Translations under genes and position numbers: made by a program
From: Candidatus Poribacteria bacterium
GTDB lineage: Bacteria > Poribacteria > WGA-4E > WGA-3G
Reading direction: 5' to 3'
NCBI GenBank assembly: GCA_965215265.1
Contig: OZ244048.1
Coordinates: 416,001 to 480,000, forward strand
Length of the DNA: 64,000 nt
In this document: piece after piece, positions 1-16,056 of the stretch
Position numbering within the stretch: the first letter of the stretch is position 1
How the letters are laid out: every line of letters starts with the position of its first letter
The notes under the pieces: generated by a model
What the model was told of the DNA's origin: nothing
The model's input: only the letters and a program-made list of their open reading frames with translations
Database searches by the model: none

Positions 1-566
1 AGACTTACCGTCGGAGTGTGAGACAGTAACGTATGCGTTGATTCACTACCTAATTGCTCCGGTTTACTAACTTCTCCGTAATCTCCACCTAAACCATTCT
101 CGAGCTGAAATACACAAAATAGCAGGTCTGGATAAAGTAACTTCGCGATTAACTCAAAATCTTTCAAGGTTCTTTTGAGCATAGCATTTTCTATATATGA
201 CTTGCACTCTATGCCTAGAATTAACTTGTCATCTATCTTTACTGCTCTATCCAACTCTATTTTATAAACATATCTTTCCTTATTCTGTTCAATATGATGC
301 CGGATAGATTCAAGAGTTAGATTTTTAACATAATTTTCTTCGATAGTGATAGTTCTTGTCCGTTTTCGTATATCGAAGCGGTCAGTCTCACCCCCTACTT
401 CATGCCATGCTAAATGGACTATAGCATCCACAATATTCTCTACTAGTGCACCTTTTGCTCCCCGAATCTGTCCTGGAGTCATCTCGTACATTGAATATAT
501 GCTGCTGTTGTACAACTCAACTATTGATTGATAGTCTGGATAAGTAAGCACATCATAGGTAGCCAT
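1..566 (-). CDS. Probable Type II restriction endonuclease (PD-(D/E)xK), truncated at the window edge
   Basis: Not in the ORF track because it runs off the window. Manual translation from ATG 566 gives MATYDVLTYPDYQS...ELDRAVKIDDKLILGIECKSYIENAMLKR..., open to position 1. It has a D..E-x-K motif, is AT-rich and lies directly downstream of a DNA MTase. Confidence 0.7.
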   Translation of the reverse strand, partial: MATYDVLTYPDYQSIVELYNSSIYSMYEMTPGQIRGAKGALVENIVDAIVHLAWHEVGGETDRFDIRKRTRTITIEENYVKNLTLESIRHHIEQNKERYVYKIELDRAVKIDDKLILGIECKSYIENAMLKRTLKDFELIAKLLYPDLLFCVFQLENGLGGDYGEVSKPEQLGSESTHTLLSHTPTVS

Positions 567-649
567 TTAGCTGTTCCATATCTTACAAGTGATTTGTAAC
601 TGCTCCGATATCAAGAATTAAAGCCCTGAAATGCTTAAGTCAAGTTCAC

Positions 650-1537
650 TTACACTAAAAGGCGTAACCTATCCTCCGCCGTTTGGCAGTATTCGGGCGA
701 AATGTCTATACCTAAGAAATGACGTTGGCTTTTAAACGCTGAAACACAAGTTGTTCCAGTCCCCGCGAAAGGATCGAGAATAGTATCTCCTCGGAAACTG
801 AACAGCTTCAACACCCGATTCGCGAGTTCCTCTGGAAACATCGCAGGATGTCTAAATTTTCGCATATCGCGTTCCGGTGCGATCGTCCATTTCGCCGAGA
901 CCCACCGTTTGAAAGACTCAGCGTCAATATCCGCATCTTTTGGATGCCCCGACTTTTTCAAAGACCCTTTGCAAAATATCTCTAAAAACTCCCACGTATA
1001 TTTAAGGTAGGGGCTCGAGGGGCTTTTCCAACTCCCCCAAGCAGTATACTTACAATTGTAGTGATTTTTCTCCCATAGAATTTCACCCTTCCAGATCAGC
1101 TTCTTCCGTATAAAGTACTGTGAAATAAGATGATGTGTCGGAATGTAATCCGAAAATAGCGGCTGAACGTTAACAACGATGCGGCCCCCATATTTCAGTA
1201 TTCTGATGCATTCATCAAAGATACCGAACAACACCCTGAAGTAAGCGTCCCATGCAAAGGCATCCTCGGTTCCCTCGTAATCCAGACCAAAGTTGTAGGG
1301 CGGCGATGTGAAAATGAGGTCTATGCAATTGTCAGGCAGCTGCGTGAGAACAGTCTGTGAGTCGCCGCAGATAATTGTATCGGTAAACTCAGCAGGTAGG
1401 ACATTACTCTCCTGACTAAAATCATGCGTATTGGCATAATAGTACTTCCCACGTGCTGCTTCTTTCTGTTTCCGATTCCTAACTTTTCGTTCCATCGTGT
1501 TATCTCTCTTTTTCAAATTGTTCTTTTGCTCAAACAT
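650..1537 (-). CDS. Site-specific DNA methyltransferase, beta class (probably N4-cytosine)
   Basis: Motif IV TSPPY precedes motif I DPFAGTGTT; HPAMFP motif present. Alternative start at ATG 1495. Confidence 0.92.
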   Translation of the reverse strand: MFEQKNNLKKRDNTMERKVRNRKQKEAARGKYYYANTHDFSQESNVLPAEFTDTIICGDSQTVLTQLPDNCIDLIFTSPPYNFGLDYEGTEDAFAWDAYFRVLFGIFDECIRILKYGGRIVVNVQPLFSDYIPTHHLISQYFIRKKLIWKGEILWEKNHYNCKYTAWGSWKSPSSPYLKYTWEFLEIFCKGSLKKSGHPKDADIDAESFKRWVSAKWTIAPERDMRKFRHPAMFPEELANRVLKLFSFRGDTILDPFAGTGTTCVSAFKSQRHFLGIDISPEYCQTAEDRLRLLV

Positions 1538-1769
1538 AGATGCTCTCTATAAAGTCCGTTCTACTTCCTGCTACAGTTGTGGGCAGAAAATGAGTCGTAC
1601 TCATCTCAACAGGCTATCGAATAGTATCACAGTTCCTGAGAAAAGTCAAATCTATTGTTTGGAAAATATGCAAACGTCTACCGATAGAGGTGCTGCAGCA
1701 CGTTGTCTCTGAACCTCACGAAAAACCGAAATGGTGCGTCGACTCCTGATTTTTGACCGACTCTGCCGC

Positions 1770-1799
1770 AAAAATGCCGCCCCTATGAGTAGAGCGGCA
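1770..1799 (-). terminator. Rho-independent terminator after the ssp/pbe-like operon
   Basis: Minus strand reads TGCCGCTC-tactcatag-GGGCGGCA followed by TTTTT. Confidence 0.6.
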
Positions 1800-1966
1800 A
1801 ACTAATCTCCAGCCCATGTAAAACCGTAAAGCAGGAAAAATATTCTTCAGTCTCATCCTCCATTAGATTCGTAATTTGCTCTAAACTTCCCAATAGGTCG
1901 TGGTCTTTCCCTCCTTGCGAGATACATCCGCCTATACAACCTATAGAATTATAGAATCTTTAGCAT

Positions 1967-2422
1967 TCACGCCTCCTCTCGTAGTAATTCATCAATTGCG
2001 TCAGAAAGATTCCAGATTGGATCATCCTTTCCATCTTGCAGCATCCTGGCTATATGGGGGACCCCCGCCGCAGCGAGCCCATTCGCGATAGTCATCATGC
2101 GCCGTGGATTTTCCACAACTTGCACGTCATCATCAACTGCTATAGCAATTAACATTACTGTCTGGAACCGCCAACTGTCTCGGTCAAAGATTGAACCTTG
2201 GATGAACGTGAAAGTTTCCTGTTTGGATAGGTTGACTAGTTCGAGTTCCTTTCGCACTGCAAACGATAATCCTGCAAACCATAAATCAACCATTCGCGGG
2301 AAAGGGCTTCGATCTACACTTGCCTGTCTACTTGTTTGGCAGTAACGATCATAAACATCGCGCTGAGTCTTAGGGGCGATTAAATCCATACTAGCAAAGG
2401 GATTATGATATTGCTGTGCCAC
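1967..2422 (-). CDS. Dnd-associated protein 4 / PbeD-like protein
   Basis: 151 aa. The pattern 'SPFPRMVDLWFAGLSFAV...MLIAIA...ANGLAAAGV' resembles dnd-system-associated protein 4 (recognised from memory). Last gene of the helicase-small protein-ATPase module. Confidence 0.5.
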   Translation of the reverse strand: MAQQYHNPFASMDLIAPKTQRDVYDRYCQTSRQASVDRSPFPRMVDLWFAGLSFAVRKELELVNLSKQETFTFIQGSIFDRDSWRFQTVMLIAIAVDDDVQVVENPRRMMTIANGLAAAGVPHIARMLQDGKDDPIWNLSDAIDELLREEA

Positions 2423-2444
2423 TGTCTACCTCCTAAGATATTGG

Positions 2445-4553
2445 TTACACTTCTGTTTCTACATCCATTCGCCGCTGGCACAAGCGGCATTTCTTACGGT
2501 GATTGCATTCACACCGTAGTGTCTTACGTTGCTCTACCCGTGGATCATTAACTAAAATTCGCGGATAGTGTGCCGAGTTTGTCAACGTTATCACACGCCC
2601 TGCTTCTTCATCCAGAATTTCTTCACAGTCTGCAATCTCGGAGCGCGTGAGAAATAGAATAAGCTGCGAGCTTTCCCGGATGGCAGTCCTAAGTACGGAC
2701 CGCTTCACATAGCCGCTCATCATTCCGAGCGGTGTATCAAGCACATTCGGGGCTTCGACTTCACTAACCTTAGTTAGAGCAAGGATAAAGGCAAAGGTCA
2801 GTGCACGACGAGATGCACCGTTAAGATCTTGGTCAGGGTTTAGCATTTGATTATTTAAACCGTAGACCAGAATATCATAATCCTTGCTGATTTCTGCCCT
2901 TTGAATGATCGCCCCTTGTTTTGGATCAGCACCGATCATTTCAAGAAAAATCTCGTTCATTTTACAGCTGACTTTCATCAATTCTTCATCTGTAATCCGG
3001 TCGTAGGACTTCTTCAGAACACTTTGTACATCGCGCGCCACATCCAGACTCGCAAGTATGTGTTTACCTTTCCTCTGTTTACTAAGAAGGTTATCGCGCC
3101 GCAATACCAAGCTTTTACGCTCTTTTTTTAGTCCTTCAAGTTGTGTTTCAGCTCCCCCTAAACGACGGGAAAGGTGGGTCTTCTGGTCAGTGTAGTCCTG
3201 CTCGGTAGAGCGAAGACCCTGAATATTGATGTCAGGTATAAGGTCCAACTGTGCTTCAAGATCCTTAAGTTTTTCACCTTGTTCATCGCGTTTCCTTTTA
3301 AGTTTATCTCGGCACTCCACGATTTTCTCGTACTCAGCAATCCAATCCTTATTGTTAGCGGTTTCATCCAGTTGCAAGTCACGCGAACCGTAATAGAGGT
3401 CAGTGAGCTTACTTTGAAGAACATCTGCTTGTTGGCTTTCATCAATCAGGCACTGGATGTGGTCTCTTCGCTTCTTGCCATCAACTGTCTGTGAATCTAA
3501 CGACTCACCACAAATGCAAGTAATTCCCTGGAGACGCTCTTCCAAGACAGGAATGGTTGCACTAGGAATCTTGCCCTGAGTGTGCAACTTACTTAGCTTT
3601 TCAAGGCTTTTTTTCAACGTCGGAGCAAGCAGGTCGCGTGAGAAGAACATACCTCTAAAAAGGTGAGAATGTTTTTGACCAGCAGCAGCGAGATTCTTGT
3701 CAAGTTGCTTTAGCTGCACCTTGGTTTCTGCAATATCGATTTTAAGTTTTTCCCGGTCGCCCTTAACTAATGCGATTTCAATTTGTTCCCGGGTTCCCTC
3801 AATTTGTTTATGAATCGCGGCAATCTGCGATTTATAATCGACTATGTTTTTCTCAAGCTTCCTATACGCGGTTTCTATCTCTTCCAATTCTGCAGCAACG
3901 CTTGTGAGTTCCTTATGGATGTCAAGTGATTTTGCTGCTTTGTTGAAGTCAGAAATTGTCGTTTTTATATGTGACCTGGCCTTGTCAATGTAATTCAGTC
4001 CCAAAAGCGAACGGATTGCTTTTTCAACGCGATCTCGCTTGATTTTTTCTGATGCAGTTGCTTCAATGAAACTGAGTGCTCGATCACCGTCAGTAAAGAA
4101 CACCTCCCTTAGTTCAGGCGGAAGTTCTTCTTTAATCCGCACGTTAGGTTTATCCACGTCCTTGCTCCCCGTATCTGTTAATTCAAATAAACGGACCTCT
4201 GGATTATCCATTACACCATCTAATTTTTCATAACCAGCCCGGATAATACGGTATCGTATAGTGTCATCCGGACCGCTCCGACTAAGCCTCTTTGTCTCAA
4301 ATTCAACCTGTACAGATATTGGAATTCGCTGACCATCTGCTGCGTCCCAATCGATCGGATGTAGACGGTAGTCTTTGCCCTTTTCTGGCAATGCATCATT
4401 ACCATAAAGAGCCCATTGAAGTCCATTGAGGATAGTGGTTTTTCCACTTTCGTTCTCTGCCCGAATAACCGTTAGCCTTTTATCCGTTGAAAAGTCTAAC
4501 TTTAAATCACGTAGCAGACGGAAATTTTCAAATTGGGCACGGATAAGTTTCAT
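2445..4553 (-). CDS. SMC/Rad50-like ABC ATPase with CxC hook (PbeC/DndD-like)
   Basis: N-terminal 'FENFR', Walker A AENESGKTT, long coiled coil with central CICG, signature LNGASRR, Walker B NVLDTPLG, C-terminal CECxxxxxCxxC. Confidence 0.85.
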   Translation of the reverse strand: MKLIRAQFENFRLLRDLKLDFSTDKRLTVIRAENESGKTTILNGLQWALYGNDALPEKGKDYRLHPIDWDAADGQRIPISVQVEFETKRLSRSGPDDTIRYRIIRAGYEKLDGVMDNPEVRLFELTDTGSKDVDKPNVRIKEELPPELREVFFTDGDRALSFIEATASEKIKRDRVEKAIRSLLGLNYIDKARSHIKTTISDFNKAAKSLDIHKELTSVAAELEEIETAYRKLEKNIVDYKSQIAAIHKQIEGTREQIEIALVKGDREKLKIDIAETKVQLKQLDKNLAAAGQKHSHLFRGMFFSRDLLAPTLKKSLEKLSKLHTQGKIPSATIPVLEERLQGITCICGESLDSQTVDGKKRRDHIQCLIDESQQADVLQSKLTDLYYGSRDLQLDETANNKDWIAEYEKIVECRDKLKRKRDEQGEKLKDLEAQLDLIPDINIQGLRSTEQDYTDQKTHLSRRLGGAETQLEGLKKERKSLVLRRDNLLSKQRKGKHILASLDVARDVQSVLKKSYDRITDEELMKVSCKMNEIFLEMIGADPKQGAIIQRAEISKDYDILVYGLNNQMLNPDQDLNGASRRALTFAFILALTKVSEVEAPNVLDTPLGMMSGYVKRSVLRTAIRESSQLILFLTRSEIADCEEILDEEAGRVITLTNSAHYPRILVNDPRVEQRKTLRCECNHRKKCRLCQRRMDVETEV

Positions 4554-4569
4554 TGGATAGCCCTCCTCC

Positions 4570-4794
4570 CTATTTTAGTTGATTCCGGCTCTCTGCAAGA
4601 GAGTCGCCAGTCTTTTGACAAATTTCGCGTATTTTTTGGTGAATAGGTGTCATCTTCAAAAGATGTTCCTTTTCGTGTTCGAGGATTTTATCTATGGCAC
4701 CAGCAAGTTCCTCCTTGTACCCATCGTACCTTTCCTCAATAGATTGGCATTCATGAAAGATAATGTCAAAGATTTTTTGTCTATTGAACAGCAT
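4570..4794 (-). CDS. Small helical protein between helicase and ATPase (PbeB-like position)
   Basis: 74 aa with an AGGAG RBS, tightly packed in the operon. Confidence 0.65.
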   Translation of the reverse strand: MLFNRQKIFDIIFHECQSIEERYDGYKEELAGAIDKILEHEKEHLLKMTPIHQKIREICQKTGDSLAESRNQLK

Positions 4795-4805
4795 GATTCT
4801 CTCCT

Positions 4806-6941
4806 TTATAGATAAATCGCTTTAACAAGTCGATCAATAATATCCAAAGGCCCATCAGTTCTACCTGCATTCAGAGCGAGTTTAGAAAATTTCATAACTC
4901 GCGAGAGTTCTGATTCAATAAGTTTGCGTGCCTCATCGTCGATATCATCCATGTTCGATGGCAATGCAATAAAATCGTGAATTTCGCTATGTGTCTTGTC
5001 AGTTTCACGACATGTCCGAAGGAGCCTCCCTCGACGCTGTACCCATTGCCGCTCTACTGTAGTACTGGCCAGGATGAACGCCTTTTTAATCTGCGGAATG
5101 TTCACACCTTCATCAAGCACGCGCTTTGCAGTCAGCACATGCAATGTCCCCTCCTGAAAGGATTGGATAATTTTCGCTGTTTTTTCACTGTTCGGTGTTT
5201 CCTTGTATGTGAGTTGGTGAAAAAGCACACCGCGTGCCTTCAATAAAGCATTGACAGCCTCAAGTTGCTGCGGTGCCTTGTCTGATGCGTAAATTAATGT
5301 GTACTGGAGTTGTCGAAACCCCTCACGTGTCAAGACCGCCTCCAACGCCTCGATCTTATTTTCCGCGTTCTCTAAGAGAGCACGCCTATCCCGAAGCAAC
5401 TTCATCAGATACTCATCAGTTTCATTTTCTTCCTTACGCCAAGAATTCGCCTTGATTTTTTCCGTAAGTGCATACCATTGGTCCATTTCGTCCTCTGTGA
5501 GTTCCACAGGATGAACGTAATACTCGTATTCAACGAGGCATCGCCCGATTGCTTCCTCGAGCGTGAATTGGAAAACAACCGGACCGAAAAATGAGAACAG
5601 GACCTCTGTCCCGTGTTCATCATATTGACGGATCGGAGTTGCCGAAAGACCCAGCCTATAATCAAAAAAAGTCGGCAGGTCAGTGATGAATCTCTCACTT
5701 CCCAGATTGTGTACTTCATCCGCAATGAGCAAAGTCTTACAATCCATTTTTTTGATTTCCGTTTTAAACTCGCTATTGCATAGTGTAACATGAGAAACGA
5801 CAACAATTTCAATGCCGCTTCTTCCAATTCGAAGCCGTCGTCTTATCTTATTAAGTTCACGTGCCCGTCCTCTTGCTCCTGTAGACGCTGTCAGATTAAC
5901 AGCCGTGAGTCCAAAGGGCAAAATCTCATCACACCACTGTTGAATGAGCGGAATGTAGGGTGCTGCAACAACGATAAGCAGCGGCTTCTGCACATTGTAA
6001 AGCCTATGTGCACAAATCATAGCAGTAATCGTTTTGCCTGAACCGGTCGCCATTTCTAAGATACCTTGATAATCCGCTTCGCACCACGCATCTACAGCCC
6101 TGCCTTGATGTTCAAAGGGGCCATCCTGAAATCGGAGTTCTGATGGTATTACAAATGAAGTACGAGACGAATCGTAATCGGCAGGAGATTCCTTTATCGA
6201 GCCAGTCGCCTGGTCGTAGAGTGTCCGAAAATCTGTCTCGGTTGGCGGGATGTCTGAACGATAAGTGTGAAGTAGATCGTCGCGAATAGCTTGGGGCATC
6301 TCAACCACGATACAACTCTCAACCTCATTTTCCCAAAGTTGTTTGAACTGGTCACAAAACCTTTCTGTAGTGTAGTGCTGGGTAGGATCTTCCCAGGATT
6401 TAGAAATGGAAATTTGCTCAATATTCTTCTGAATACCGGCATAAGTCATATTGCTAGATCCGTGTGCTGCAATCACGTCATCACCTTTCCGAAAGAGCCA
6501 GACCTTTGGATGGAAGAGTGCATCTTTCATAACGGCTATCTTGATTTGGACGCGTCTCCTATGCAGCAGCCACGACAGACACTTCAGTGTATGTTGCGCA
6601 ATAAGGTCTTCAGTGACAAACATATCTTCTAAAATTGCATTAGCGCTATTTTCCGAAGAGGTTAGCCCTTCTTCTATTGCCTCCCTATCTTCAGAGCGGA
6701 GCAGAGGACTGATAATTAAGCGAAAACTCTCCTCTGAGGAGTTGATAAAGGTTGCCAAGCCCGGGGCTAGCGACACGAAGATGTCGCTAGAAAAGAATCC
6801 CATCATGCCATCAACTTGAGTCGCTGACTGAAAGCAAGGGATCAGGACCTCTTCAGACACCGGATCGTCAGGTAGTATGTAGAGAGGTCTAATATTAGGC
6901 ACAGCCTGAAGCGTCATCTCATTAAGCTCCAACATCTTCAT
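4806..6941 (-). CDS. PLD-nuclease + SF2 (DEAD/DEAH) helicase (PbeA / dnd-associated restriction enzyme-like)
   Basis: HKD-type motif HPK...GSSN; MATGSGKT; DEVH; LGLSATP; LDEGVNIP; QRRGRLLR. Confidence 0.88.
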   Translation of the reverse strand: MKMLELNEMTLQAVPNIRPLYILPDDPVSEEVLIPCFQSATQVDGMMGFFSSDIFVSLAPGLATFINSSEESFRLIISPLLRSEDREAIEEGLTSSENSANAILEDMFVTEDLIAQHTLKCLSWLLHRRRVQIKIAVMKDALFHPKVWLFRKGDDVIAAHGSSNMTYAGIQKNIEQISISKSWEDPTQHYTTERFCDQFKQLWENEVESCIVVEMPQAIRDDLLHTYRSDIPPTETDFRTLYDQATGSIKESPADYDSSRTSFVIPSELRFQDGPFEHQGRAVDAWCEADYQGILEMATGSGKTITAMICAHRLYNVQKPLLIVVAAPYIPLIQQWCDEILPFGLTAVNLTASTGARGRARELNKIRRRLRIGRSGIEIVVVSHVTLCNSEFKTEIKKMDCKTLLIADEVHNLGSERFITDLPTFFDYRLGLSATPIRQYDEHGTEVLFSFFGPVVFQFTLEEAIGRCLVEYEYYVHPVELTEDEMDQWYALTEKIKANSWRKEENETDEYLMKLLRDRRALLENAENKIEALEAVLTREGFRQLQYTLIYASDKAPQQLEAVNALLKARGVLFHQLTYKETPNSEKTAKIIQSFQEGTLHVLTAKRVLDEGVNIPQIKKAFILASTTVERQWVQRRGRLLRTCRETDKTHSEIHDFIALPSNMDDIDDEARKLIESELSRVMKFSKLALNAGRTDGPLDIIDRLVKAIYL

Positions 6942-6970
6942 TTTTTAGACATAATCAAATTTAATAAAAA

Positions 6971-7789
6971 CTACTTATAACAAATCAGACACGGTTCCTC
7001 ATCGTCTTCATCGTCGTGCACATCCGTAAGGATATCTATCAGCCGCCGATTCGGACGAGCCGCCCGCTTCGCCGCCTTCGACTCTTCAGCATGTGCCTTA
7101 ATCTGCTCAATGCGTTCCGGGTCCGAAAGCTCGTCTAAACTCTCGCTCTGACACCATGTGAACCGTTCACCGGTATCAGGGTCAAATTTCTCGTATGCCT
7201 TGGCGAGTTCAAAAAGGTCGGGATGTTTCTCCAGCAACCCTACCCACTCGGATTTACGCTGGAAGAAGCAGAAATAGCACCCGGAACGCGTCCGCCAATC
7301 GTAATAGTCCGGCATCCCGAGCCCACTCTCCTCCAGAATGCGGTAGACATCCTGTTTCGTGATACCATCTTCCTTAAAAGGATATTTCGGCTCAATGTTT
7401 CGCAACTCCGCGTTTTTCAGCGGCTTATAACCGACGCGATCCTCATCTGCACGAATCGCGATGTAGTTGTACGCCTTGTCGTCACCGACATATCTCTCAA
7501 ACGGTTTAATCTTGAGATTGACGGTACACCAACGCACCTGTGGCGATGGCAACAAGCCCCCTAAAACCGTCAACCAGTGATCGAAATCCCGCTCCGTATT
7601 CAGACGGGCGATCGGTTTGCCGAGGAACGCCTCCAGCCGATCCAAAAACGCATACGTCTCCGGCAATTCTTTCCCAGTATCTGAGAACACATATTCCATC
7701 TCCGGCACCCGGTCACGCATATAAATCGCGAGTGCAGAACTATCTTTCCCACCGGAGAGCCCAAGAATGTGTCGTCTCTGCTGTTCCAT
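6971..7789 (-). CDS. sspD: PAPS-reductase-family phosphorothioation enzyme (SspD/DndC-like)
   Basis: SGGKDS PP-loop, RWCT, RSGCYFCFFQ, C-terminal CLIC. Start set to ATG 7789 after a GGGAGG RBS. Confidence 0.8.
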   Translation of the reverse strand: MEQQRRHILGLSGGKDSSALAIYMRDRVPEMEYVFSDTGKELPETYAFLDRLEAFLGKPIARLNTERDFDHWLTVLGGLLPSPQVRWCTVNLKIKPFERYVGDDKAYNYIAIRADEDRVGYKPLKNAELRNIEPKYPFKEDGITKQDVYRILEESGLGMPDYYDWRTRSGCYFCFFQRKSEWVGLLEKHPDLFELAKAYEKFDPDTGERFTWCQSESLDELSDPERIEQIKAHAEESKAAKRAARPNRRLIDILTDVHDDEDDEEPCLICYK

Positions 7790-7799
7790 GTTTTCCTCC

Positions 7800-10700
7800 C
7801 TATTCTTGAAGTTGTTGCATCCATTTCTGTGCAATTCGTGCGAAAATAGCGACGCGAAGCTCAAGGGTATCAGTGCCCATCCCAAACTGCTTAAAGACCT
7901 CATCAATAGCCTTTTCTATTTCGGAAGCCTGCTTATCAGCCGCTGATGGTAAAGTGACGACCCGCTCCTGTTCGGCTTGGTGAGGCCGTGTAATGCCGAC
8001 CCGAACAGGTTCACTAGATGACGGCTGACGGCACGCTTGTTCTTCATAAGAAACGGCTTCAAAATGATGGAATTGTCGCGCGAGCGTCGAAAGATTCATC
8101 TCAAATAGAGCGTTATCTTCGTCATTCCAAGATCTCGGCGGTTTGTTAGCTACATAGAGCGCCACTGCCTCAAGCCAGTCAGTGCGATTCCGAAGCTTGC
8201 CATCGCAGACTCGACGGAGAAATCCGTTGAGCCTCCCCCCAACGGTAATTTCCAACAGCGGCTCTGCTCTGCGAACCAGTACACGCTGAAGCTCTTTCTC
8301 GTCTTCCAAAGCGAACGTCGTCTTAAGTCGTTGTTCAATCGAATTCAACAGACTCTCGTAGACCTGCCGCAATTCAGATAAAACCTCCTGTAGTCTGCTG
8401 CAGAAGTCCGAAACTACCTGCGAGTCCACGATTTCCGGGCTGAAAACCGGAAATCCGAGGGCCTTCGGCAGCTCCCCAAAAAGCAGCTCATCCGGTTCAC
8501 GCGCATTCGTAACCGATGTACGCAGCCTCTTAGCTTCATCGCTCAACTCCTCCGTTTTCAAAGTGTAGTCTGGAAGTTGTGCAATAAATTGCATAAGCGG
8601 TGCAACCACCGTCAATAAATCAGGTTCTCCAGGTTCCGACGATTGACGGAGTACCTTCAGAAATTGCTCGAACAACTCGCCCCGGATAGCTGTCATCCGG
8701 AAGCGCTTGATCTCAAATCGTTGCGGCATTTTAAGCAGCCGCTCAAAAAGCGGCACTGACCATTCCGGGGCAAAGCCCCCATTTTCGTAGAGCGCGATTT
8801 CCGACTTGTAATGCAGCAGAGCAGCACACAACAGAATCGGCAGCAGACCATTTCGAACACCGTAAGGCTCGGCCTCTAAGCATTTATAGAGAGCTACTAC
8901 CGGTTGCCGCTCGCCTTCACACTCCTCAAGAAACGCATCTATTTCTCCCCACACGGGCATCAGACTTTCTTCCGTTGGCGGACAAAACCCCCACATGTCC
9001 GAAACTTTGCGATGCATGCCCGTACTCTCTAACACAGAACGGTAGATGCTCATTTCAGCCGGGTAACCGTTGATGCCGAGGTTTTCCATGTCACTCCTCT
9101 CAAGCATCGCCTCAATCAATTTTCTTCGGGCAGTCGCCGCTGTCGCAGAAATACTACGTCTATTGATGAGCTCATTACGAATAATAGGTGTCCCAGGGTA
9201 AACCTGCTTACAGATTTCTGACAAATATCTGTTCCGCGCACGTTGGGAGTTGATACTTTCTACAGGTTTCCCTTTGTGGTACCAGAGACAAGTTTTATCT
9301 CTATCCTTGTCGCCCTTAAAAATTTCGGTTAGTTGACCGGACACTGCGCGTTCTGCTTCCATCTGCCGCAGGAGGAGCTCCCGTCTTGCAACTGCATCGC
9401 CCTCCAATTCCGGGGTGTTTTCCGCAACCCAATGTAGACAGGCAAGTTCAAAGACAACCTCTTGCAGCGACTCGATCGAACGTGGAATCGCAACCAACAC
9501 CGCCGCGTGCGCGACACTGTCCATGCCGCACGCCTTCTCAATGAACTGATCGACCTGTTCCTGCGTCGCAGGTAGCGTGTAAAGGATCAGACCGTCCGCA
9601 TCCTCGAACGGTTCACTCAGATCTGCCTCGAAGTTCTCAAGATTGGTGTACCGAACAGTGAAATGACGGAGGGTCCCTGTCTCAAACAGATGCTGCCGTG
9701 CAACGAGCGGACGCGGTTGTGTATAGCGCGAGAGGTCTGCAGCAAGCACTAACTCCGAACCAATATGGGCCGCGGCTTCGCGGAGCCGTACCTCAATATC
9801 AATATCACTCCCTTCCCAAAGGGCGTAGGTGTCATTGTAACGACGGTATATCACAATGGATCGCCTTTTCAGATCTGCAAGCGCCTCCTCAAATCCTCCT
9901 CCGTTAGCGTCTAACGCATAACGCAGCATTTGTGCTGAGGCTTTCAGCTCAGGAATCCCTGTGTTAACAACATTGAGTAACCCAATAGTTTTAATCAGAC
10001 GAAGCGCTAACGGTGAAGGATCCGATAAGCAATCTAAGGCAGATTCAATTTCTACCCATTTTTTCCCGTTATGAGAAGCATAAAGCCGATGCCCTTGTGT
10101 AGTATGAAGGTAGTCATACAGTTCAGCGAGCGAAAACAGAGGCAGAACCTCTCCATCGTAAGATTCTGATGCCAAAAAGTCTTGTAGCCCATGCGGTTCG
10201 CTTGAACTCAGGAAAGCAAAGAGCGAACGTTCATTCTGTGAGAACCGCCGGAAAAGCGGCCCGATCATGAGGGCCACCGTCGGATGCAGCGGCAGACAAC
10301 TCTTCAATAACAAAATAAATTCGTCTTCATTCAATTGGCGCGGTTTTAGTCCTAAAGCAATTGCATTGTTAAGATTAGGCGGCACGACAACCTCTGGATG
10401 CCGCACCAATGCCGCACTAATTAACCGAAGCACCTGCTCAGTCGGCTCCGTAAACACCACATCCTCGAACCGGCCCTGAACCTTCGCCCACTCTTCTCGT
10501 TGTGACCTACTCGCACGTTCCACGTAAAATTCAAAAGCTTGATGCAGGATCGTCATCAGGAAGAACGGTGCCGGCGTACTGCGATCCGCCAATTCGGCGA
10601 GGCTCTGCAGAACAAATATATCTGCTTGTGCCGGACGATCCGCAGCATATTCGAGAAACTTTCCCAGCTCGTCAACCACCACCAGCAGCCCGGAACCTCC

Positions 10701-11279
10701 AGCATCACAAATTTGACGTGTCGCCGATTCAAATAGCGCAGTTATCTCAGAGGCAGACGGCGAACCCCCATTTGCTACCATTTCTTTCAGGTTGTCGAGA
10801 ACCGCAGCAGCACCCCAATCGCCGTTTGAACGACTGAGCCCATGCTGCAGACCCCGCAGCAGACTACGCGTAAGCGGCGCACGTTCCCCCGAAATCAACA
10901 CAGGACAGAAACCAGATGACGACACCGCCCCCTTACCGTTTGCACCGACAGATACGAATCGCGCATGCAGCTCAGCATCACCCGCCTTCAGGATTTCTAA
11001 AGCCTGGCGCGCCGCGGAAGTGTCACGGGCACCGAGTAACTGTGCCGCAAAGAGTGCAAATGCCGACTTCCCCGAACCATACGGGCCCGTCAGAGACCAC
11101 GCCTTTGAACCACGTTCGTTTTCAAACGTAGAAACCACACGCCCCAACATATCCCGCGCACTCACAGTCAAAACGTACCCATCCAGAACGCTCTCCGTGT
11201 AGAAATCGCGCTCCAGATGCACCGAACGCCTAAAACGCCCCCTAATCTGAAAAATATCTGACAACAAGGTGTTACTCAT
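7800..11279 (-). CDS. sspC: Large P-loop ATPase (SspC/BrxC-like)
   Basis: 'FRRSVHLERD', Walker A GPYGSGKS, Walker B VVVDELGKFLE, PLHP, QNERSLF. Lies between DUF4007 and PAPS reductase, with an ATGA overlap with the upstream gene. Confidence 0.78.
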   Translation of the reverse strand: MSNTLLSDIFQIRGRFRRSVHLERDFYTESVLDGYVLTVSARDMLGRVVSTFENERGSKAWSLTGPYGSGKSAFALFAAQLLGARDTSAARQALEILKAGDAELHARFVSVGANGKGAVSSSGFCPVLISGERAPLTRSLLRGLQHGLSRSNGDWGAAAVLDNLKEMVANGGSPSASEITALFESATRQICDAGGSGLLVVVDELGKFLEYAADRPAQADIFVLQSLAELADRSTPAPFFLMTILHQAFEFYVERASRSQREEWAKVQGRFEDVVFTEPTEQVLRLISAALVRHPEVVVPPNLNNAIALGLKPRQLNEDEFILLLKSCLPLHPTVALMIGPLFRRFSQNERSLFAFLSSSEPHGLQDFLASESYDGEVLPLFSLAELYDYLHTTQGHRLYASHNGKKWVEIESALDCLSDPSPLALRLIKTIGLLNVVNTGIPELKASAQMLRYALDANGGGFEEALADLKRRSIVIYRRYNDTYALWEGSDIDIEVRLREAAAHIGSELVLAADLSRYTQPRPLVARQHLFETGTLRHFTVRYTNLENFEADLSEPFEDADGLILYTLPATQEQVDQFIEKACGMDSVAHAAVLVAIPRSIESLQEVVFELACLHWVAENTPELEGDAVARRELLLRQMEAERAVSGQLTEIFKGDKDRDKTCLWYHKGKPVESINSQRARNRYLSEICKQVYPGTPIIRNELINRRSISATAATARRKLIEAMLERSDMENLGINGYPAEMSIYRSVLESTGMHRKVSDMWGFCPPTEESLMPVWGEIDAFLEECEGERQPVVALYKCLEAEPYGVRNGLLPILLCAALLHYKSEIALYENGGFAPEWSVPLFERLLKMPQRFEIKRFRMTAIRGELFEQFLKVLRQSSEPGEPDLLTVVAPLMQFIAQLPDYTLKTEELSDEAKRLRTSVTNAREPDELLFGELPKALGFPVFSPEIVDSQVVSDFCSRLQEVLSELRQVYESLLNSIEQRLKTTFALEDEKELQRVLVRRAEPLLEITVGGRLNGFLRRVCDGKLRNRTDWLEAVALYVANKPPRSWNDEDNALFEMNLSTLARQFHHFEAVSYEEQACRQPSSSEPVRVGITRPHQAEQERVVTLPSAADKQASEIEKAIDEVFKQFGMGTDTLELRVAIFARIAQKWMQQLQE

Positions 11280-12268
11280 TCTTCCCCTTCTTTGTCATAA
11301 TACTGCTTTAAAAGTCGCATCGACTCTGAATCACACCGACTATCGCGATGGAAAAGTCGCATCGACTCGGAACCACACCGACTATCGCGATGGAGCTGCT
11401 TTAAACCTGCAGTATCATCATATCGCAGTACACCCGCGGTAAGTTCTTCAAGCCTATCGAGATACAGAGTCATCGTGTCTTCATCTATTCTGAAAATTCG
11501 TCCCGGACTTAAGGGTTCATACATCAGCTCTTGGAAGCGCAATGTGTTCGCTGCAGAAAAACGTTTATCCCAAAACGCAATCAGCGTCGCCGTAAAGAGC
11601 TCGACCGGTAAAGTCTCTTTTCTCCCACGCTGGAACTCATAGCCCGCACCCTCCGGCAACTCACCGATTAAGTTGAGCTCAACAAGCGGACAAGCAAAAG
11701 TCTCCTCAACTAAGGCAGCGTTAAAACTATCAGGTGAAGCGCAATACGTCCGAATAAAACAAGTCACATCGCGCCGAAATGTATTGTCAGAAACAGGCCG
11801 CTTCGATACCCGCTGCTGCGATGCCCACTTCGACAATTCCGTTATAAAGGTGTCAAATGTGAATCGATTCTCCTTAAAAATGTTAAATGCCCAATACCAC
11901 GTAGTAGCCTGGTTGATATGAGTTGCAATCTGCCAATGAATGAACCACAGAGTAGCAGGGTCATCGAGGTACGGATCAAATCCGTCTTTCCCAAAAAAAG
12001 CCTCGCCGAGCTCTGTTGGCACAAATACCCCGGGTTGACGTGATACTGTCTCAATAAGTCCAGATACTCTGCACCAGTACCGAATAGAATCCACCATGTT
12101 TTTTCCGACACCTAAAGTGACGGAAGCCTCCTGCGATGAAAAAACATCCGGATCCTCGATTACCGCATCGACACCTTTCTTCAACCACATGTATCGCATC
12201 GGAAACGTCTGATGGCCTGAAAAGGACAGATTTCTTACTTGTGAAGGGTTGAAGCGTAGGTTACTCAA
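11276..12268 (-). CDS. sspB: DUF4007 family protein (SspB-like nickase)
   Basis: FSGHQTFxxRxxWLKKG, LGVGKNMVxSIRYW and DPYLxDxxTLWxIHW are DUF4007 hallmarks. TTG start. Confidence 0.85.
   Translation of the reverse strand: MSNLRFNPSQVRNLSFSGHQTFPMRYMWLKKGVDAVIEDPDVFSSQEASVTLGVGKNMVDSIRYWCRVSGLIETVSRQPGVFVPTELGEAFFGKDGFDPYLDDPATLWFIHWQIATHINQATTWYWAFNIFKENRFTFDTFITELSKWASQQRVSKRPVSDNTFRRDVTCFIRTYCASPDSFNAALVEETFACPLVELNLIGELPEGAGYEFQRGRKETLPVELFTATLIAFWDKRFSAANTLRFQELMYEPLSPGRIFRIDEDTMTLYLDRLEELTAGVLRYDDTAGLKQLHRDSRCGSESMRLFHRDSRCDSESMRLLKQYYDKEGEE
11310..11393. repeat. 42-bp in-frame tandem duplication at the 3' end of sspB
   Basis: Two near-identical copies (11310-11351, 11352-11393) encode HRDSRC(G/D)SESMRL twice. 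Confidence 0.9.
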
Positions 12269-12594
12269 ATTTTGCCCCCAAAAATGTACAAATCCTCAGC
12301 ACATGCAGCCCTGGGGGCAAAAAATTGAGAATAAGCGATAGAGAGACGGTACAACAAAAACAGCCCGCAGCCGGTGCCATCAACCAATATGACACACGAG
12401 CGCACGGACAAAAAATCGGCAAATGCCAATAACGTTTTACTTAATAAAATACTTAACGAATGTGAATTGGGGGGGGGGTCGTGGCCTGTTAAACCTTGTG
12501 TACGAGAGGGATCTCGTGGAATTAACGACCGACAGCAATTGCAACCGGACGCTGGTACTGTTTTAAATCTAGGACTAATATGTTTATTCTTCAT
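12265..12594 (-). CDS. Putative leader ORF containing a C10 tract, translationally coupled to sspB
   Basis: Lies between the promoter and sspB; its TGA overlaps the sspB TTG (TTGA). The tract is at 12469-12478. No recognisable domain. Confidence 0.5.
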   Translation of the reverse strand: MKNKHISPRFKTVPASGCNCCRSLIPRDPSRTQGLTGHDPPPNSHSLSILLSKTLLAFADFLSVRSCVILVDGTGCGLFLLYRLSIAYSQFFAPRAACAEDLYIFGGKI

Positions 12595-12694
12595 CTACTT
12601 TACCGGTTAGATGTGAGGGAGTATAACTTAAACCAGAATGGAAAATAATTGAGATAATACACATTTTTCTGTTCTTCGGGTCATATTTACCTAT

Positions 12695-12723
12695 ATTATA
12701 CCTTAAACTGCAAATCTGTTCAA
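12695..12723 (-). promoter_or_regulatory. Sigma70-type promoter for the leader-ssp-pbe operon
   Basis: Minus strand: TTGAAC - 17 nt - TATAAT. Confidence 0.7.
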
Positions 12724-12785
12724 ACTATTTCCCGGATTTGTCACGTTTTGTTTTATTATATGAATTATCAAATTCTTGTGCGATT

Positions 12786-13652
12786 CTAGCCTTTAAACAC
12801 CTCTCTTAGGTGCCAATCTATAAATTCTTCGTTCGGGTAATCCATCTGGCTATGAGGAAAACTAATTTCTTTTCCGTGGAATCTCATTAGCCATTCTTCA
12901 AAACCGGCTGACCCGTCTGCATCCTCAGATACCACTATTGTCAACTCCTCGGACAATGCAAAGGCCCCCCGGTCGAACAACTTATGATGTAGCGAGCAGA
13001 GAGCCATGCCATTCTCTGCTATATCCGGTCCATCCGCCATGCGCCATTTGATATGAGCCGCCTCTAAAGCGACAGGACGAGCTCGTAACGTTACATTAAA
13101 TCCACAAATCGCACACTCGTGGTTATAAGCATCGAGGATACGGTGCCGGAATTTAGGATCACGGGGCTGCCAGAACGATCCGAAAGATAGTTCAATGCCG
13201 ACAGCTTGTAAAATATCTTCATGGTATGAGATTGGAAAATGAGAAGCTAGCAACCGCCCAGTTATTTCAAAAACTAAACCCAAATCGCTTTTAAGTTTTT
13301 CGGCAATCGCTGCCGGAAAGCTACCGACACCGTACTCCCTCAAATCGGTGACGTACGCATCTCCACTAGCAGTCTGCTGAATTCTATGTGCATCGGATAC
13401 TTGCCAGATGTCGTCGTTTTGCAACCGCCAAAATGGCTGCTCAGGGTGATACCTTTGGCACCACGGTCCAAACTCTTTTAGTAAGTCCTTGAGTTCCTTT
13501 TCAGCTTCTGCAAATGGGATGTACTCAGTTTCGCTGTTCAGCAATTTGCCTATCGCATAAAGTAGCAGCAACGGCTTATGAGGCGCTCTTTCGCCGCCGC
13601 TTTTCCATACATTCAAGTCCTGAAATTTCTGAATAATTGATTCTCTGTCCAT
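12786..13652 (-). CDS. Sulfur-binding-domain (SBD) HNH endonuclease, phosphorothioate-DNA-dependent restriction type
   Basis: SBD motifs RAPHKPLLLL and PFWRL; C-terminal CAIC...LEAAHIK...NGMALCSLHHKLFDRG. Confidence 0.85.
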   Translation of the reverse strand: MDRESIIQKFQDLNVWKSGGERAPHKPLLLLYAIGKLLNSETEYIPFAEAEKELKDLLKEFGPWCQRYHPEQPFWRLQNDDIWQVSDAHRIQQTASGDAYVTDLREYGVGSFPAAIAEKLKSDLGLVFEITGRLLASHFPISYHEDILQAVGIELSFGSFWQPRDPKFRHRILDAYNHECAICGFNVTLRARPVALEAAHIKWRMADGPDIAENGMALCSLHHKLFDRGAFALSEELTIVVSEDADGSAGFEEWLMRFHGKEISFPHSQMDYPNEEFIDWHLREVFKG

Positions 13653-13727
13653 TTTCTATCTTCTTAGCTATAGAAGAGTTCCATTTTCTCTCTGCTGCGA
13701 ATCAGGATGCGATATAAACAAAGAAAT

Positions 13728-14420
13728 TCAACTTGTAAAAGTGGAATTCTGCTCTGTTTTATCTTCAATTTCCAGGAAATCCTCGTGCCTTTCTTCCAAG
13801 AGATTCGCTAACGCTTCTTCCATGGAATCCTCGGATGCTTCAGCATGATTCATCACAAATTCCCATGCAATATAGTAGATATTATCTAAGTCAAAATCTG
13901 AGGGGTGGTAACGGTCGAAATGAGCGATATCACAAGTATAAAGAATTTCCCCTACGTAATCAACCGCTCCATCGGGGAGTTCTGCGAGCATCTGTGCGGT
14001 TGTTACATCGTCCACCTTTATCTCGTATTTTTTGCTAATGTACTGTTTAATGACACGCGCAATTATTTTGTGGTATTCGGCAATTGCATCCTTCTCACGC
14101 AGGGCATAAGCATCTTCAAGCTGGCTGAGTGCTTGATCTTCAAAGGGCTTGCCGTCACCCAATGTTAGCGGACTTCTGCGCCGCTGCGGATTTGGCTGTC
14201 CCTTGCTTACCGTTCGTGCTCTTCTTGGACTTTGCGGGCTTCTATGCACGTGCTGAAGCTTCTCACGGTGCGCTTGCCGGTTGCGGCGGACACGCGAGCG
14301 AAGAACCAGCGCACCTGCCGCGAGAATGATGAGACACGCTGGTAAAACAACCCACAAAAGAGTGCTGACGATATCCATGAGTTGATATGGACTAGCACGG
14401 AGTCCAGCCGCGTTCTCCAT
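13728..14420 (-). CDS. Hypothetical single-pass membrane protein
   Basis: ATG 14420 with an AGGA RBS, a TM segment, a basic linker and a helical domain 'YHKIIARVIKQYI...TTAQML'. The 5' extension in the ORF track overlaps the upstream gene. Confidence 0.6.
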   Translation of the reverse strand: MENAAGLRASPYQLMDIVSTLLWVVLPACLIILAAGALVLRSRVRRNRQAHREKLQHVHRSPQSPRRARTVSKGQPNPQRRRSPLTLGDGKPFEDQALSQLEDAYALREKDAIAEYHKIIARVIKQYISKKYEIKVDDVTTAQMLAELPDGAVDYVGEILYTCDIAHFDRYHPSDFDLDNIYYIAWEFVMNHAEASEDSMEEALANLLEERHEDFLEIEDKTEQNSTFTS

Positions 14421-14544
14421 CTGGTTTCCTACGGTTTGCGAGAGAAACCCAACAGTTCCAAAATAGCCGGTGGAAGATCGGCTTTTGCGTGTCTCGCTGT
14501 TTTGTATCGTGCTTGCCAGAGTTGTGCCACACGCAAAAACTCGC

Positions 14545-16056
14545 CTAATCTTCATGGCATAGCCCATATTCTTTTGCTTTCCTTTGAATGGTTCGGCGGC
14601 TGATTTGCAAAATTTTCGCCGCTTTCGCTTTGTTATTCTCTGCATATTCAAGTGTGGCACGAAGAGCCTCGCGGCTAATTTCGTCAAGTGACATGCCGAC
14701 CTCCACATTAATGCGCGGCACAATGCTGCTGCTCGAATCTAACGTCCGAAGCGTCGGTAAGAACGGCATCTCTGAGACACCTTGATCTCCCTCAAAAAGC
14801 GGAGGAACCTTCTGATTCAGCGCAATGCTGCTTTCAGGTTCATATTGGGAAGACTCATGTTCCGCTAAGGTCTTCTCAAGGATGCGCTCAGGTAGTTCAG
14901 CCTGTTGTATCGCTGACTGTGTAGACATAACCACAAGCCCCTCAATACAATTTTTCAATTCTCGCACATTTCCAGGCCAGTCGTACTTCATTAACGTTCT
15001 AATCGCCGGGGTTGTCATCTTCATCAAAGCTTTTCCGTTTTCCCGACAAAATTCTGCGAGAAAATCTTTGACGAGCAGCGGAATATCTTCTACCCGTTCT
15101 TTAAGTGTCGGGAGGTTAATCCGGATAACGTTGAGCCTGTCGTAAAGATCTGGGAGGAACGTGCCGTTTTGGCATGCCGACTCCAAATCATGGTTCGTTG
15201 CACAGACGACCCGCACGTCAACTTTAATCGTTTTACTCCCGCCCATCCGTTCAAATTCTCGTTCTTCGAGGACACGCAGCAAACGTGCCTGATTGGATAA
15301 ACTGAGTTTCGAGATTTCATCCAAGAAGAGCGTGCCACCGTGTGCAAGCTCAAACCTGCCTTTGCGTTGATAATAAGCCCCGCTAAACGAACCACGTTCA
15401 TGACCAAAAAGTTCGGATTCCGCAAGGTTCTCGTTGAGCGTCGCACAGTTAAAAGCGATGAGCGAACCACGCCGCAAACTGCGATGATGAACCGCACGAG
15501 CAACGAGCTCTTTACCTGTCCCACGCGCACCGTAGATAAGCACCGTCGCTTTTGTCGGCGCGACTTGCGTCACCATCTCACGGATCCTGATGATTTGCGG
15601 GGACTGACCGGTCAGACGCCGTAAGCCCTCATTTTCGTCTATTTGCGATTGCAACTGGCGGTTCTCAAACTTTAGACGTTGACTTTGGAGCGTTCTCTGC
15701 AGCAGCGCCCTCAGGTGAACAGGATTCACCGGCTTCGGCAGAAAATAGGTCCCTTCATGCACTGTCATCGCTTTGATGCCGATATCAGTCTCCAAAATAT
15801 TGGAAGCCGTGATGAAAATCACACCTATATCCGGATGGTGCTGCATCGCCGCTTCTAACAAACTTAACCCATCAATCCGTTCCGCTTTCAGTGTCGCAAT
15901 CAGGATATCCGTTTTCAGATGCTCAAGCTGATAAAATGCTTGATACATGTTGCTCGTCACAACTAAATTGAGCCCCTCTTCACCGAGCGTTTGGCAGACT
16001 AGCTCGCGTTGCCGTGGGTCGGCATCTACAATCAGCACGGTTTTCTGTGTATTCAT
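14545..16056 (-). CDS. Sigma54-dependent (NtrC/Fis-type) transcriptional regulator with atypical receiver domain
   Basis: Receiver domain; AAA+ GARGTGKE, ESELFGHERGSFSGA, GTLFLDEI, WPGNVRELKN; Fis-type HTH. Confidence 0.92.
   Translation of the reverse strand: MNTQKTVLIVDADPRQRELVCQTLGEEGLNLVVTSNMYQAFYQLEHLKTDILIATLKAERIDGLSLLEAAMQHHPDIGVIFITASNILETDIGIKAMTVHEGTYFLPKPVNPVHLRALLQRTLQSQRLKFENRQLQSQIDENEGLRRLTGQSPQIIRIREMVTQVAPTKATVLIYGARGTGKELVARAVHHRSLRRGSLIAFNCATLNENLAESELFGHERGSFSGAYYQRKGRFELAHGGTLFLDEISKLSLSNQARLLRVLEEREFERMGGSKTIKVDVRVVCATNHDLESACQNGTFLPDLYDRLNVIRINLPTLKERVEDIPLLVKDFLAEFCRENGKALMKMTTPAIRTLMKYDWPGNVRELKNCIEGLVVMSTQSAIQQAELPERILEKTLAEHESSQYEPESSIALNQKVPPLFEGDQGVSEMPFLPTLRTLDSSSSIVPRINVEVGMSLDEISREALRATLEYAENNKAKAAKILQISRRTIQRKAKEYGLCHED

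Follow-up and report, generated by a model that had tools for sequence, protein, structure and literature searches.

Can a PbeABCD effector serve an Ssp phosphorothioate (PT) writer? In the known PT pairings, Dnd is found with DndFGH, Pbe or DndI, and Ssp with SspE or SspFGH; the Ssp type strains carry single-strand PT at 5'-CpsCA-3'. The question was raised by a stretch of 64,000 nucleotides (hereafter the window) from a bacterium of the Candidatus Poribacteria, which are sponge symbionts (assembly GCA_965215265.1, contig OZ244048.1, positions 416,001 to 480,000). In this stretch the genes of an SspBCD writer are followed directly by those of a PbeABCD-type effector. The composite operon is real, and it consists of known modules in an undescribed, conserved combination. 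By analogy with characterized systems, the locus is likely a composite PT-based defence island, in which SspBCD would mark DNA, PbeABCD would exclude unmarked DNA, and a nuclease with a sulfur-binding domain (SBD) and an HNH domain, encoded just upstream, would add a second arm.

The gene arrangement was examined first at the level of the operon (Table 1). Seven open reading frames (ORFs) on the minus strand, sspB-sspC-sspD-pbeA-pbeB-pbeC-pbeD, form one packed operon at 1967-12268, exactly where the preliminary description of this DNA had placed it. In the ORF listing sspB and sspC overlap by 4 nt, and sspC is separated from the ATG of sspD by 10 nt. The gaps downstream are 29 nt (sspD-pbeA), 11 nt (pbeA-pbeB), 16 nt (pbeB-pbeC) and 22 nt (pbeC-pbeD). 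The short AT-rich module boundary and the terminator after the operon, both claimed earlier, were also recovered. The boundary corresponds to the 29-nt spacer, where the GC content at third codon positions (GC3) steps down from sspD to pbeA (sspB 0.47, sspC 0.51, sspD 0.60, pbeA 0.45, pbeB 0.41, pbeC 0.41, pbeD 0.42), and the terminator to a hairpin past pbeD. Promoter-like and terminator-like sites were scanned over window positions 1400-14000 and compared with shuffles, and the site totals in this range were not above the shuffles (promoter-like 13 versus a mean of 15.7; terminator-like 16 versus 11.5). The tight gaps and the flanking promoter-like and terminator-like sites suggest that the seven genes are likely one transcription unit. 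Co-transcription of sspD and pbeA is likely because only 29 nt and no terminator-like site lie between the two modules.

The modifier had been assigned to SspB, SspC and SspD and the effector to a PbeABCD-like set, and both assignments stand. Five of the proteins match Ssp or Pbe families in PADLOC, the three writer proteins at full length. The DUF4007 match of SspB reached 290.4 bits against a Pfam cut-off of 27. The SspC match spans profile positions 1-1053 of 1054, and the translation holds the Walker A motif GPYGSGKS. The sspD ORF is open to 7906 (311 aa, overlapping sspC); the ATG at 7789 is the likely true start, because the SspD profile and all homologues begin there. SspD also matched PAPS_reduct in Pfam (2.8e-8), and its SGGxDS motif and five cysteines (C88, C171/C174, C267/C270) were invariant among 26 homologues. 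Pfam and PADLOC detected no cysteine desulfurase within the cluster, and the SspE, SspFGH and DndFGH profiles of PADLOC gave zero matches among 13 window proteins scanned, in agreement with the absences recorded before. A housekeeping IscS, which had been proposed to be required instead, is available in the form of IscS-like genes: Aminotran_5 gave 10 matches elsewhere in the same genome, the top one at 510 bits. In Vibrio anguillarum FF-93, SspBCD is reported to be supported by an IscS encoded elsewhere in the genome (PMC8092258). The window's genome gave no match to DndC and, with the one model tried (PDLC02792), none to SspE; no further DndD lies above the cut-off, the sole notable DndD-like match being PbeC itself. 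Because neither DndC nor a match to the SspE model was found in this genome, Ssp is the sole PT writer detected with which Pbe could pair.

Among the effector proteins, PbeA and PbeC were recognized by PADLOC profiles, PbeD by hhalign and its predicted fold, and PbeB by position and size. The Pfam domains of PbeA are PLDc_2 (4.6e-7; 30.2 bits versus a cut-off of 27), ResIII, DEAD and Helicase_C. Its HxK motif is present in 28/28 full-length proteins of the window lineage and 6/6 Dnd-linked ones. The GSxN motif is present in 27/28 (R replaces G in locus L033) and 6/6, respectively; the protein of L034 reads GSCN, consistent with GSxN. Helicase motifs I, II and VI are conserved. Shorter PbeA proteins of 501-548 aa, with the helicase only and without the N-terminal phospholipase D (PLD) domain, were observed in two Chloroflexota loci (L035:1289-2791 and L036:9833-11476) with no Ssp genes nearby. 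PbeC matched AAA_23 in Pfam (1.8e-15), and the CxC motif seen earlier in this SMC-like ATPase is TCICG at residues 345-349. Walker A, CxC and DTPLG were kept in 29/29 rows of the window lineage. Moreover, a C-x-C-x5-6-C-x2-C tail at the C-terminal end (window 2445-2520) was found in 29/29 rows of the window lineage and 0/6 Dnd-linked proteins. This four-cysteine tail may be a zinc knuckle.

The two small proteins, of 74 and 151 aa, matched nothing in Pfam, PADLOC or NCBIfam, either singly or as sets of 28-29 members. The AlphaFold2 (AF2) model of the 74-aa protein, with a predicted local distance difference test (pLDDT) of 74 and a predicted template modelling score (pTM) of 0.42, has three helices. 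The protein occupies the place of a 56-59-aa ORF in Dnd-linked loci, with a common pattern noticed by eye only. For the 151-aa protein, the AF2 model (pLDDT 88.8, pTM 0.84) shows two beta-alpha-alpha units and C-terminal helices. In a wide VIA-align search it matched DndE of Natronorubrum (7x4e_A; Z 8.6, root mean square deviation 3.5, 111/114 residues), DndE of E. coli (5wtu_A; Z 7.4) and a chain of the F-plasmid relaxosome (9f0x_E; Z 6.6), the following row having a Z of 3.7. By hhalign it matched a protein of ~160 aa encoded after PbeC in Dnd-linked loci (69%, E 4.3e-5, 107 columns), and its atlas neighbours carry PF27807 dnd_assoc_4 (score 0.96, 234/256 features). Foldseek gave nothing at E <= 0.001 for the model against the PDB, the PbeD families were negative against DndE sequences by hhalign (0.2-0.3%), and the PbeD profile had no meaningful match among PDB sequences. 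The modelled structure indicates that the 151-aa protein is PbeD, with a predicted DndE fold. This agrees with the work of Rakesh et al., in which PbeD is described as a DndE cognate of the tandem ribbon-helix-helix type (PMC10853773).

We were particularly interested in whether the two modules stay together in other genomes. Over 120 cluster representatives share 74-79% identity with the window's PbeA. A set of 29 related loci, each with a PbeA relative at 58-77% identity, was taken from one-genome-per-species contigs. The set covers five named phyla: 16 loci are from Candidatus Poribacteria, 3 from Latescibacterota, 5 from Chloroflexota, 2 from Pseudomonadota and 1 from Acidobacteriota, and 2 are untitled. 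PbeA and PbeC are retained in all 29, PbeD in 28-29 and PbeB in 28. SspD was found within 10 kb of PbeABCD in 25/29 loci, in varied gene orders. The sspBCD genes lie directly upstream of Pbe on the same strand in 14 loci, and in 3 an insert of 1.3-2.7 kb separates sspD from pbeA. The Ssp module lies downstream of PbeD in 5 (3 convergent, 2 on the same strand; in one of the five, L026, SspC falls just outside the stored DNA). SspD stands alone beside Pbe in 3 (L011, L015 and L020, the last interrupted by a contig end). Because the linkage persists through different gene orders, it appears to have a function, and the Ssp-Pbe pairing is not chance. In the three Latescibacterota loci PbeA is 72-75% identical to that of the window and SspC only 24-25%, indicating that one Pbe lineage partners different Ssp types.

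The window's phylum was then surveyed in 176 species genomes, the window's own genome included, with counts made by hand. SspD is present in 121/176; by family (own genome not counted) it occurs in 87/111, 10/11 and 23/29 genomes, and in 0/24 of the other eight families. PbeA fell into two classes. Type A, the class of the window (E 1e-173 to 1e-205), comprises 26 loci, and in 24 of them SspD is no more than 3 kb away; the other two are G115, whose genes fall on different small contigs, and an additional copy in G158. Type B (E <= 1e-240) comprises 25 loci, 0 of which lie near SspD, with a nearest same-contig distance of ~118 kb. Six intermediate or broken matches (G075, G103, G028, G116, G101 and G076) were excluded from both classes. 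All six type B loci that were fetched carry DndC, DndD and DndE adjoining PbeA, PbeC and PbeD. Identity between the two types is 32-34% for PbeA and 21-23% for PbeC. These results indicate that the phylum holds canonical Dnd-Pbe systems and a separate Pbe lineage dedicated to Ssp, the latter in about 25 genomes; with SspD in more than half of the genomes surveyed, the system is common in this phylum.

Complete versions also exist outside the phylum. Plasmid CP099618.1 of a cultured Sphingomonadaceae isolate carries a full sspABCD-pbeABCD operon of eight abutting genes. They are annotated as cysteine desulfurase, DUF4007 protein, 1100-aa hypothetical protein, PAPS reductase, DEAD/DEAH helicase, 74-aa hypothetical protein, AAA ATPase and 148-aa hypothetical protein, and include homologues of all seven window proteins at 27-54% identity. 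In Oleispirillum naphthae (locus L032) PbeABCD is followed by a class-V aminotransferase (Aminotran_5) gene and then by SspBCD. In an even sample of 401 genomes from the class of Oleispirillum, a PbeA-like match was found in 4; two were type-A-like, and both of these were Ssp-linked. The pairing is thus rare in that class and common in the window's phylum.

Table 1. Features of the Ssp-Pbe locus and its immediate upstream neighbour, in window coordinates
Feature	Description	Coordinates	Strand	Evidence
sspB	DUF4007 protein; DNA-recognition and nicking subunit of the Ssp writer	11276..12268	-	Pfam DUF4007 1.7e-86; PADLOC SspB 1.8e-97, residues 15-295
sspC	1159-aa P-loop ATPase, BrxC-related	7800..11279	-	PADLOC SspC 1098.8 bits, residues 12-1075; BrxC model 622 bits
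sspD	PP-loop/PAPS-reductase-like sulfurtransferase	6971..7789	-	PADLOC SspD 2.7e-116, profile 1-277 of 277
pbeA	HKD/PLD nuclease domain fused to superfamily 2 (SF2) helicase	4806..6941	-	PADLOC PbeA 3.5e-199, 661.7 bits, residues 21-693
pbeB (candidate)	74 aa, three predicted helices	4570..4794	-	Between PbeA and PbeC in 28/29 loci; AF2 pLDDT 74
pbeC	CxC-hook ABC ATPase, DndD sister, with C-terminal four-Cys tail	2445..4553	-	PADLOC PbeC 1.8e-48; DndD 5.3e-39
pbeD	151 aa, tandem ribbon-helix-helix, predicted DndE fold	1967..2422	-	AF2 and fold match, hhalign, atlas neighbours
Module junction	AT-rich spacer from sspD stop to pbeA start	6942..6970	-	29 nt, 3 G/C
SBD-HNH gene	PT-DNA-binding nuclease, 517 nt upstream of sspB	12786..13652	-	NF045808 331.1 bits vs cut-off 180
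Promoter candidate	Sigma-70-like, TTGAAC-17-TATAAT, upstream of sspB	12695..12723	-	Top promoter-like site of scan, 10/12 matches; consensus match only
Terminator candidate	Intrinsic-terminator-like hairpin, ~170 nt past pbeD	1775..1799	-	Top terminator-like site of scan, 9-bp stem, 6 GC, T tail; consensus match only

The gene content given in the preliminary description stood, and the SBD-HNH gene just upstream of sspB had been overlooked. Its protein covers positions 3-284 of 284 of the NF045808 profile and carries HNH_2 (Pfam 7.6e-12). The N-terminus matches the SBD of ScoMcrA (5zmm; E 1.8e-7) and also aligns to the SBD of SprMcrA. In this alignment two putative sulfur-pocket residues of ScoMcrA look changed. 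Between the HNH gene and sspB (12269-12785, minus strand) lies a 517-nt untranslated stretch, which contains ten consecutive C and two weak hairpin-T sites as well as the promoter-like site. A 109-aa ORF at 12265-12594 was rejected as a gene, having no family match and one partial match among the 29 loci. A homologue of SBD-HNH lies within 10 kb in 10/29 related loci. In the phylum, 78/176 genomes have an SBD-HNH match above the cut-off, and in 63 of the 78 it lies within 10 kb of SspD (hand count). Among these 63 it stands right after sspD in 41, right before sspB in 21 (the order of the window) and beyond Pbe in 1. The order sspB-sspC-sspD-HNH was confirmed in 9 fetched loci, and where the gene precedes sspB, 13/21 have Pbe after sspD. 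Because the gene lies upstream and is the commonest SspBCD companion in the phylum, the island probably has two effector arms, with SBD-HNH likely forming the second in its own transcription unit. It would be paradoxical for a type IV enzyme that a PT writer is routinely accompanied by a PT-binding nuclease, which suggests an SspE-like sensing of the host's own marks. We also considered that the nuclease is aimed at the Dnd-type PT of other hosts, which predicts avoidance of Dnd. This was rejected, as 4 of the 6 genomes with a fetched Dnd-Pbe locus (G034, G151, G067 and G100) carry the HNH gene beside SspD. According to Rakesh et al., reader-HNH nucleases of Dnd loci may serve as alternative components for restriction (PMC10853773); the literature search turned up no paper placing such nucleases with Ssp.

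Given this frequent companion, SspBCD could work with SBD-HNH, and PbeABCD could be an independent neighbour, a stand-alone, PT-independent CxC-ATPase system that happens to sit in a variable slot. The frequency of SBD-HNH beside SspBCD fits such an arrangement, as does the GC3 step at the module junction. So does the variety of genes that relatives have after sspD. Inserted between sspD and pbeA are an SspE-like GmrSD_N plus GmrSD_C gene in L022 (7588-9909), a GmrSD_N-HNH gene in L037 (8690-9940), GIY-YIG and DndB-like genes in L033 (7527-9426), GHKL (HATPase_c) ATPase genes of 579-638 aa in L011 (7969-9882) and L020 (1225-2961), and a BrnT toxin gene in L012 (9553-9876). A quick tree of 44 SspD rows does not separate the proteins encoded beside Pbe from those encoded beside HNH, which are mixed with one another. 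To place the Pbe label on this tree takes 11 changes, of which well-supported branches force 6 or more. SspD identity is 73-84% among the Poribacteria-type loci and 52-58% in more distant Ssp types, and SspC identity is 24-61%. In L024/L064 (G091:C4) the order is sspBCD-pbeABCD-sspD', and the two sspD copies at 3880-4695 and 10481-11296 are sisters; the twin looks like the footprint of a cassette insertion by recombination at sspD. The simplest reading of these sequences is that the position after the conserved sspD is an effector slot, in which recombination at sspD would swap one cassette for another. This slot holds SBD-HNH, SspE-like, DUF262-HNH or Pbe genes, with frequent swaps.

Several observations weigh against a working Ssp-Pbe pair. 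The interleaved SspD tree and the unrelated genes after sspD (BrnT, the GHKL ATPases) mean that the adjacency could partly reflect a recombination hotspot and not function. In 4/29 related loci SspD is missing from the stored DNA: L019 and L035 are close to the end of a contig, no SspD is present in L036, and L028 stands beside another PAPS-reductase system. PbeA scored 381.8 bits against the 600-bit cut-off of NCBIfam TIGR04095 (dnd_restrict_1, an equivalog domain), over residues 276-697 and thus the helicase part only. Because this is below the curated cut-off, the check that had been suggested with this family turned out negative, and the window's PbeA is not filed under the equivalog. PbeC scored 121.9 bits against the NCBIfam DndD cut-off of 245.85, and 163.8 bits with the PADLOC PbeC profile, compared with 425-568 bits for Dnd-linked PbeC of the same phylum. 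These scores indicate a divergent Pbe lineage whose behaviour need not copy that of the archaeal system. For PbeB, homology is supported by position, size and the pattern seen by eye, and the atlas lead is weak. In the literature, 320/553 pbeAC were reported without dnd genes, in a study that predates Ssp (PMC6459918), and CxC/Pbe systems are described as often independent of PT writers (Rakesh et al., PMC10853773).

The independence of the two modules is nonetheless unlikely. SspD lies near this Pbe lineage in nearly all type A loci of the phylum and in most of the cross-phyla loci, in several gene orders, and both type-A-like PbeA of the 401-genome sample are Ssp-linked. The sister Pbe lineage is Dnd-linked in all fetched loci, so that both lineages track a PT writer. 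Moreover, Oleispirillum combines Ssp and Pbe in a genome without an SBD-HNH match, and the window's modules are likely co-transcribed. As a separate observation, L028 (15286-21682, Dehalococcoidia) has PbeABCD next to the PADLOC candidate system PDC-M33A/B/C, in which component C carries a fused PAPS-reductase-like domain, and also holds a DUF262 Orf5/HEC-06-like gene. Pbe may have a further sulfur-modifying partner in PDC-M33.

Of the Ssp genes, sspD shows the tightest link to PbeA, and in L011, where sspD is one gene from pbeA, and L015, where it abuts pbeA, SspB and SspC are not within 10 kb. SspC lies elsewhere in both genomes, and in that of L015 it has its own SspD beside it. Together with the DndE fold predicted for PbeD, the DndD match of PbeC and a four-cysteine PbeC tail exclusive to this lineage, this raises a further model, in which SspD, as an analogue of DndC, would also serve PbeC (a DndD sister) and PbeD. 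They would then form a second, Dnd-like PT writer, and a single core would mark and cut as a self-contained, type-I-like restriction-modification (RM) machine. We regard this as quite improbable. In Dnd-linked loci PbeCD occurs beside a DndD-DndE pair and not in its place, the sister SspD copies that flank PbeABCD in L024 make extra SspD copies look like recombination footprints, and the composition of SspD follows sspC, not pbe. A broader version, quite unlikely as well, would let the SspB-SspC and PbeC-PbeD cores share SspD in a type-I-like PT RM machine, with SBD-HNH sensing the marks of its own host like SspE and not acting as a type IV enzyme against foreign PT.

The working Ssp-Pbe pair remains our preferred reading. 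The sequences themselves show which genes are present and in what order, their catalytic motifs, the predicted fold of PbeD and a strong, conserved linkage of this Pbe lineage to Ssp; PT writing, the PT dependence of Pbe and the nuclease target would follow from SspABCD and DndCDEA-PbeABCD by analogy. In the proposed mechanism, SspB (DNA recognition), SspC (P-loop ATPase) and SspD (sulfurtransferase) would put PT on the host's own DNA, with sulfur from a housekeeping cysteine desulfurase whose gene lies outside the cluster. PbeC and PbeD would bind DNA and scan or loop it, PbeA would act on unmarked DNA as an HKD nuclease-SF2 translocase, and PbeB would be a small helical accessory subunit. 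SBD-HNH may act as a second effector that reads PT. In the archaeal system all four pbe genes are reported to be required and to act in a PT-dependent manner (PMC6459918), and one SspBCD can reportedly serve two effectors additively (PMC8092258). The effector might instead act as a guard or addiction element, in which the HKD-helicase attacks the cell's own DNA once the cell loses PT writing or a phage blocks it, leading to abortive infection and stabilizing the ssp genes. Rakesh et al. propose that HKD-SF2 systems act by suicide and that their small protein is an inhibitor which is released (PMC10853773), SspFGH is reported to be toxic without PT (PMC8092258), and the tight operon would suit such a role. 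Archaeal PbeABCD, however, is reported to stop virus replication without DNA degradation (PMC6459918), and sequence features do not tell a guard role from ordinary restriction. We consider a guard role very unlikely.

Other genes surround the operon, and a defence island seems to occupy the first ~21 kb of the window. Downstream (3-1537, minus strand) lies a type II RM pair, consisting of an N6_N4_Mtase gene (650-1537; 1e-39) and a type II restriction endonuclease gene (3-566; PADLOC 1.6e-42) that runs off the window. The methylase was rejected as a modification partner of Pbe, as it has its own endonuclease neighbour and a homologue of either was found in 0/29 related loci. An Eco57I-type methylase of 785 aa with a TaqI_C specificity domain is encoded at 18859-21213 (plus strand) and is probably a type IIG enzyme. 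Upstream of the island are a sigma-54-dependent response regulator (14545-16056, minus strand; Response_reg, Sigma54_activat, HTH_8) and an unmatched 331-aa ORF (13728-14723, minus strand) with one hydrophobic stretch and a 179-nt overlap with the end of the response regulator; neither is conserved in the related loci. Further away (23844-25623, plus strand), two adjacent ORFs with an overlap of 20 nt match different parts of DUF6178, one the N-terminal part (10-125) and the other the C-terminal part (252-546), and may be a split or frameshifted gene. No tRNA genes were found within the window.

The pairing had been called uncharacterized, and our search bears this out: no description of Ssp-Pbe was found in the accessible literature (e.g. 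PMC10853773, PMC12707154, PMC8569181, PMC12914056), supplements and subscription papers lying outside the search. In published counts, 2,678 sspBCD modules were screened solely for sspE and sspFGH, most being without a partner (PMC8092258), and 'PT-modifying genes plus pbeA-D' were counted per genome with dnd and ssp not separated (PMC7464106). If the pairing is true, it would give a partner to some orphan sspBCD and some orphan pbeAC. The Pbe/CxC effector would then read PT from two unrelated writers, which would narrow the possible modes of PT sensing. Complete versions in two cultured strains make the question directly testable.

The locus was finally compared with known systems. It resembles DndCDEA-PbeABCD (Xiong L. 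et al. 2019, PMC6459918) in having the same four-gene effector in the same order adjoining a PT writer, with small proteins of similar size (66 aa there and 74 aa here; PbeD 152 and 151 aa). It differs in its writer, which is SspBCD, with DUF4007, a BrxC-like ATPase and a short PAPS reductase, and not DndCDE(A). The Dnd-linked Pbe of the same phylum is likewise different, both in its low PbeA and PbeC identity to the window class and in being without the four-cysteine PbeC tail. With SspABCD-SspE and SspABCD-SspFGH (PMC8092258, PMC9646914) the window shares the sspB-sspC-sspD writer and an effector right after sspD. It also shares with the reported SspABCD systems a desulfurase in trans, as in Vibrio anguillarum FF-93, and the possibility of several effectors per writer (PMC8092258); its effector, however, is neither SspE (DUF262-DUF1524) nor SspFGH. 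In the CxC ABC-ATPase/DndE-cognate systems of Rakesh et al. 2024 (PMC10853773), counterparts are described for PbeC, PbeD, PbeA (HKD-SF2) and PbeB. The partners given there are DndABCDE, cytosine methylases or nothing; in the accessible text of that paper no PP-loop enzyme replaces DndC, and a partnership with SspD or SspBCD goes unmentioned. PbeB is described there as mostly disordered, whereas it is predicted to be helical in the window. The SBD-HNH protein resembles the PT-dependent type IV nucleases ScoMcrA, SprMcrA and EcoWI (PMC7461809) in having an HNH_2 domain and an SBD, the latter aligning to those of ScoMcrA and SprMcrA. Enzymes of the ScoMcrA type are reported to attack foreign PT-DNA, with <3.6% near dnd clusters (PMC7461809), whereas the SBD-HNH gene described here is a regular partner of a PT writer.

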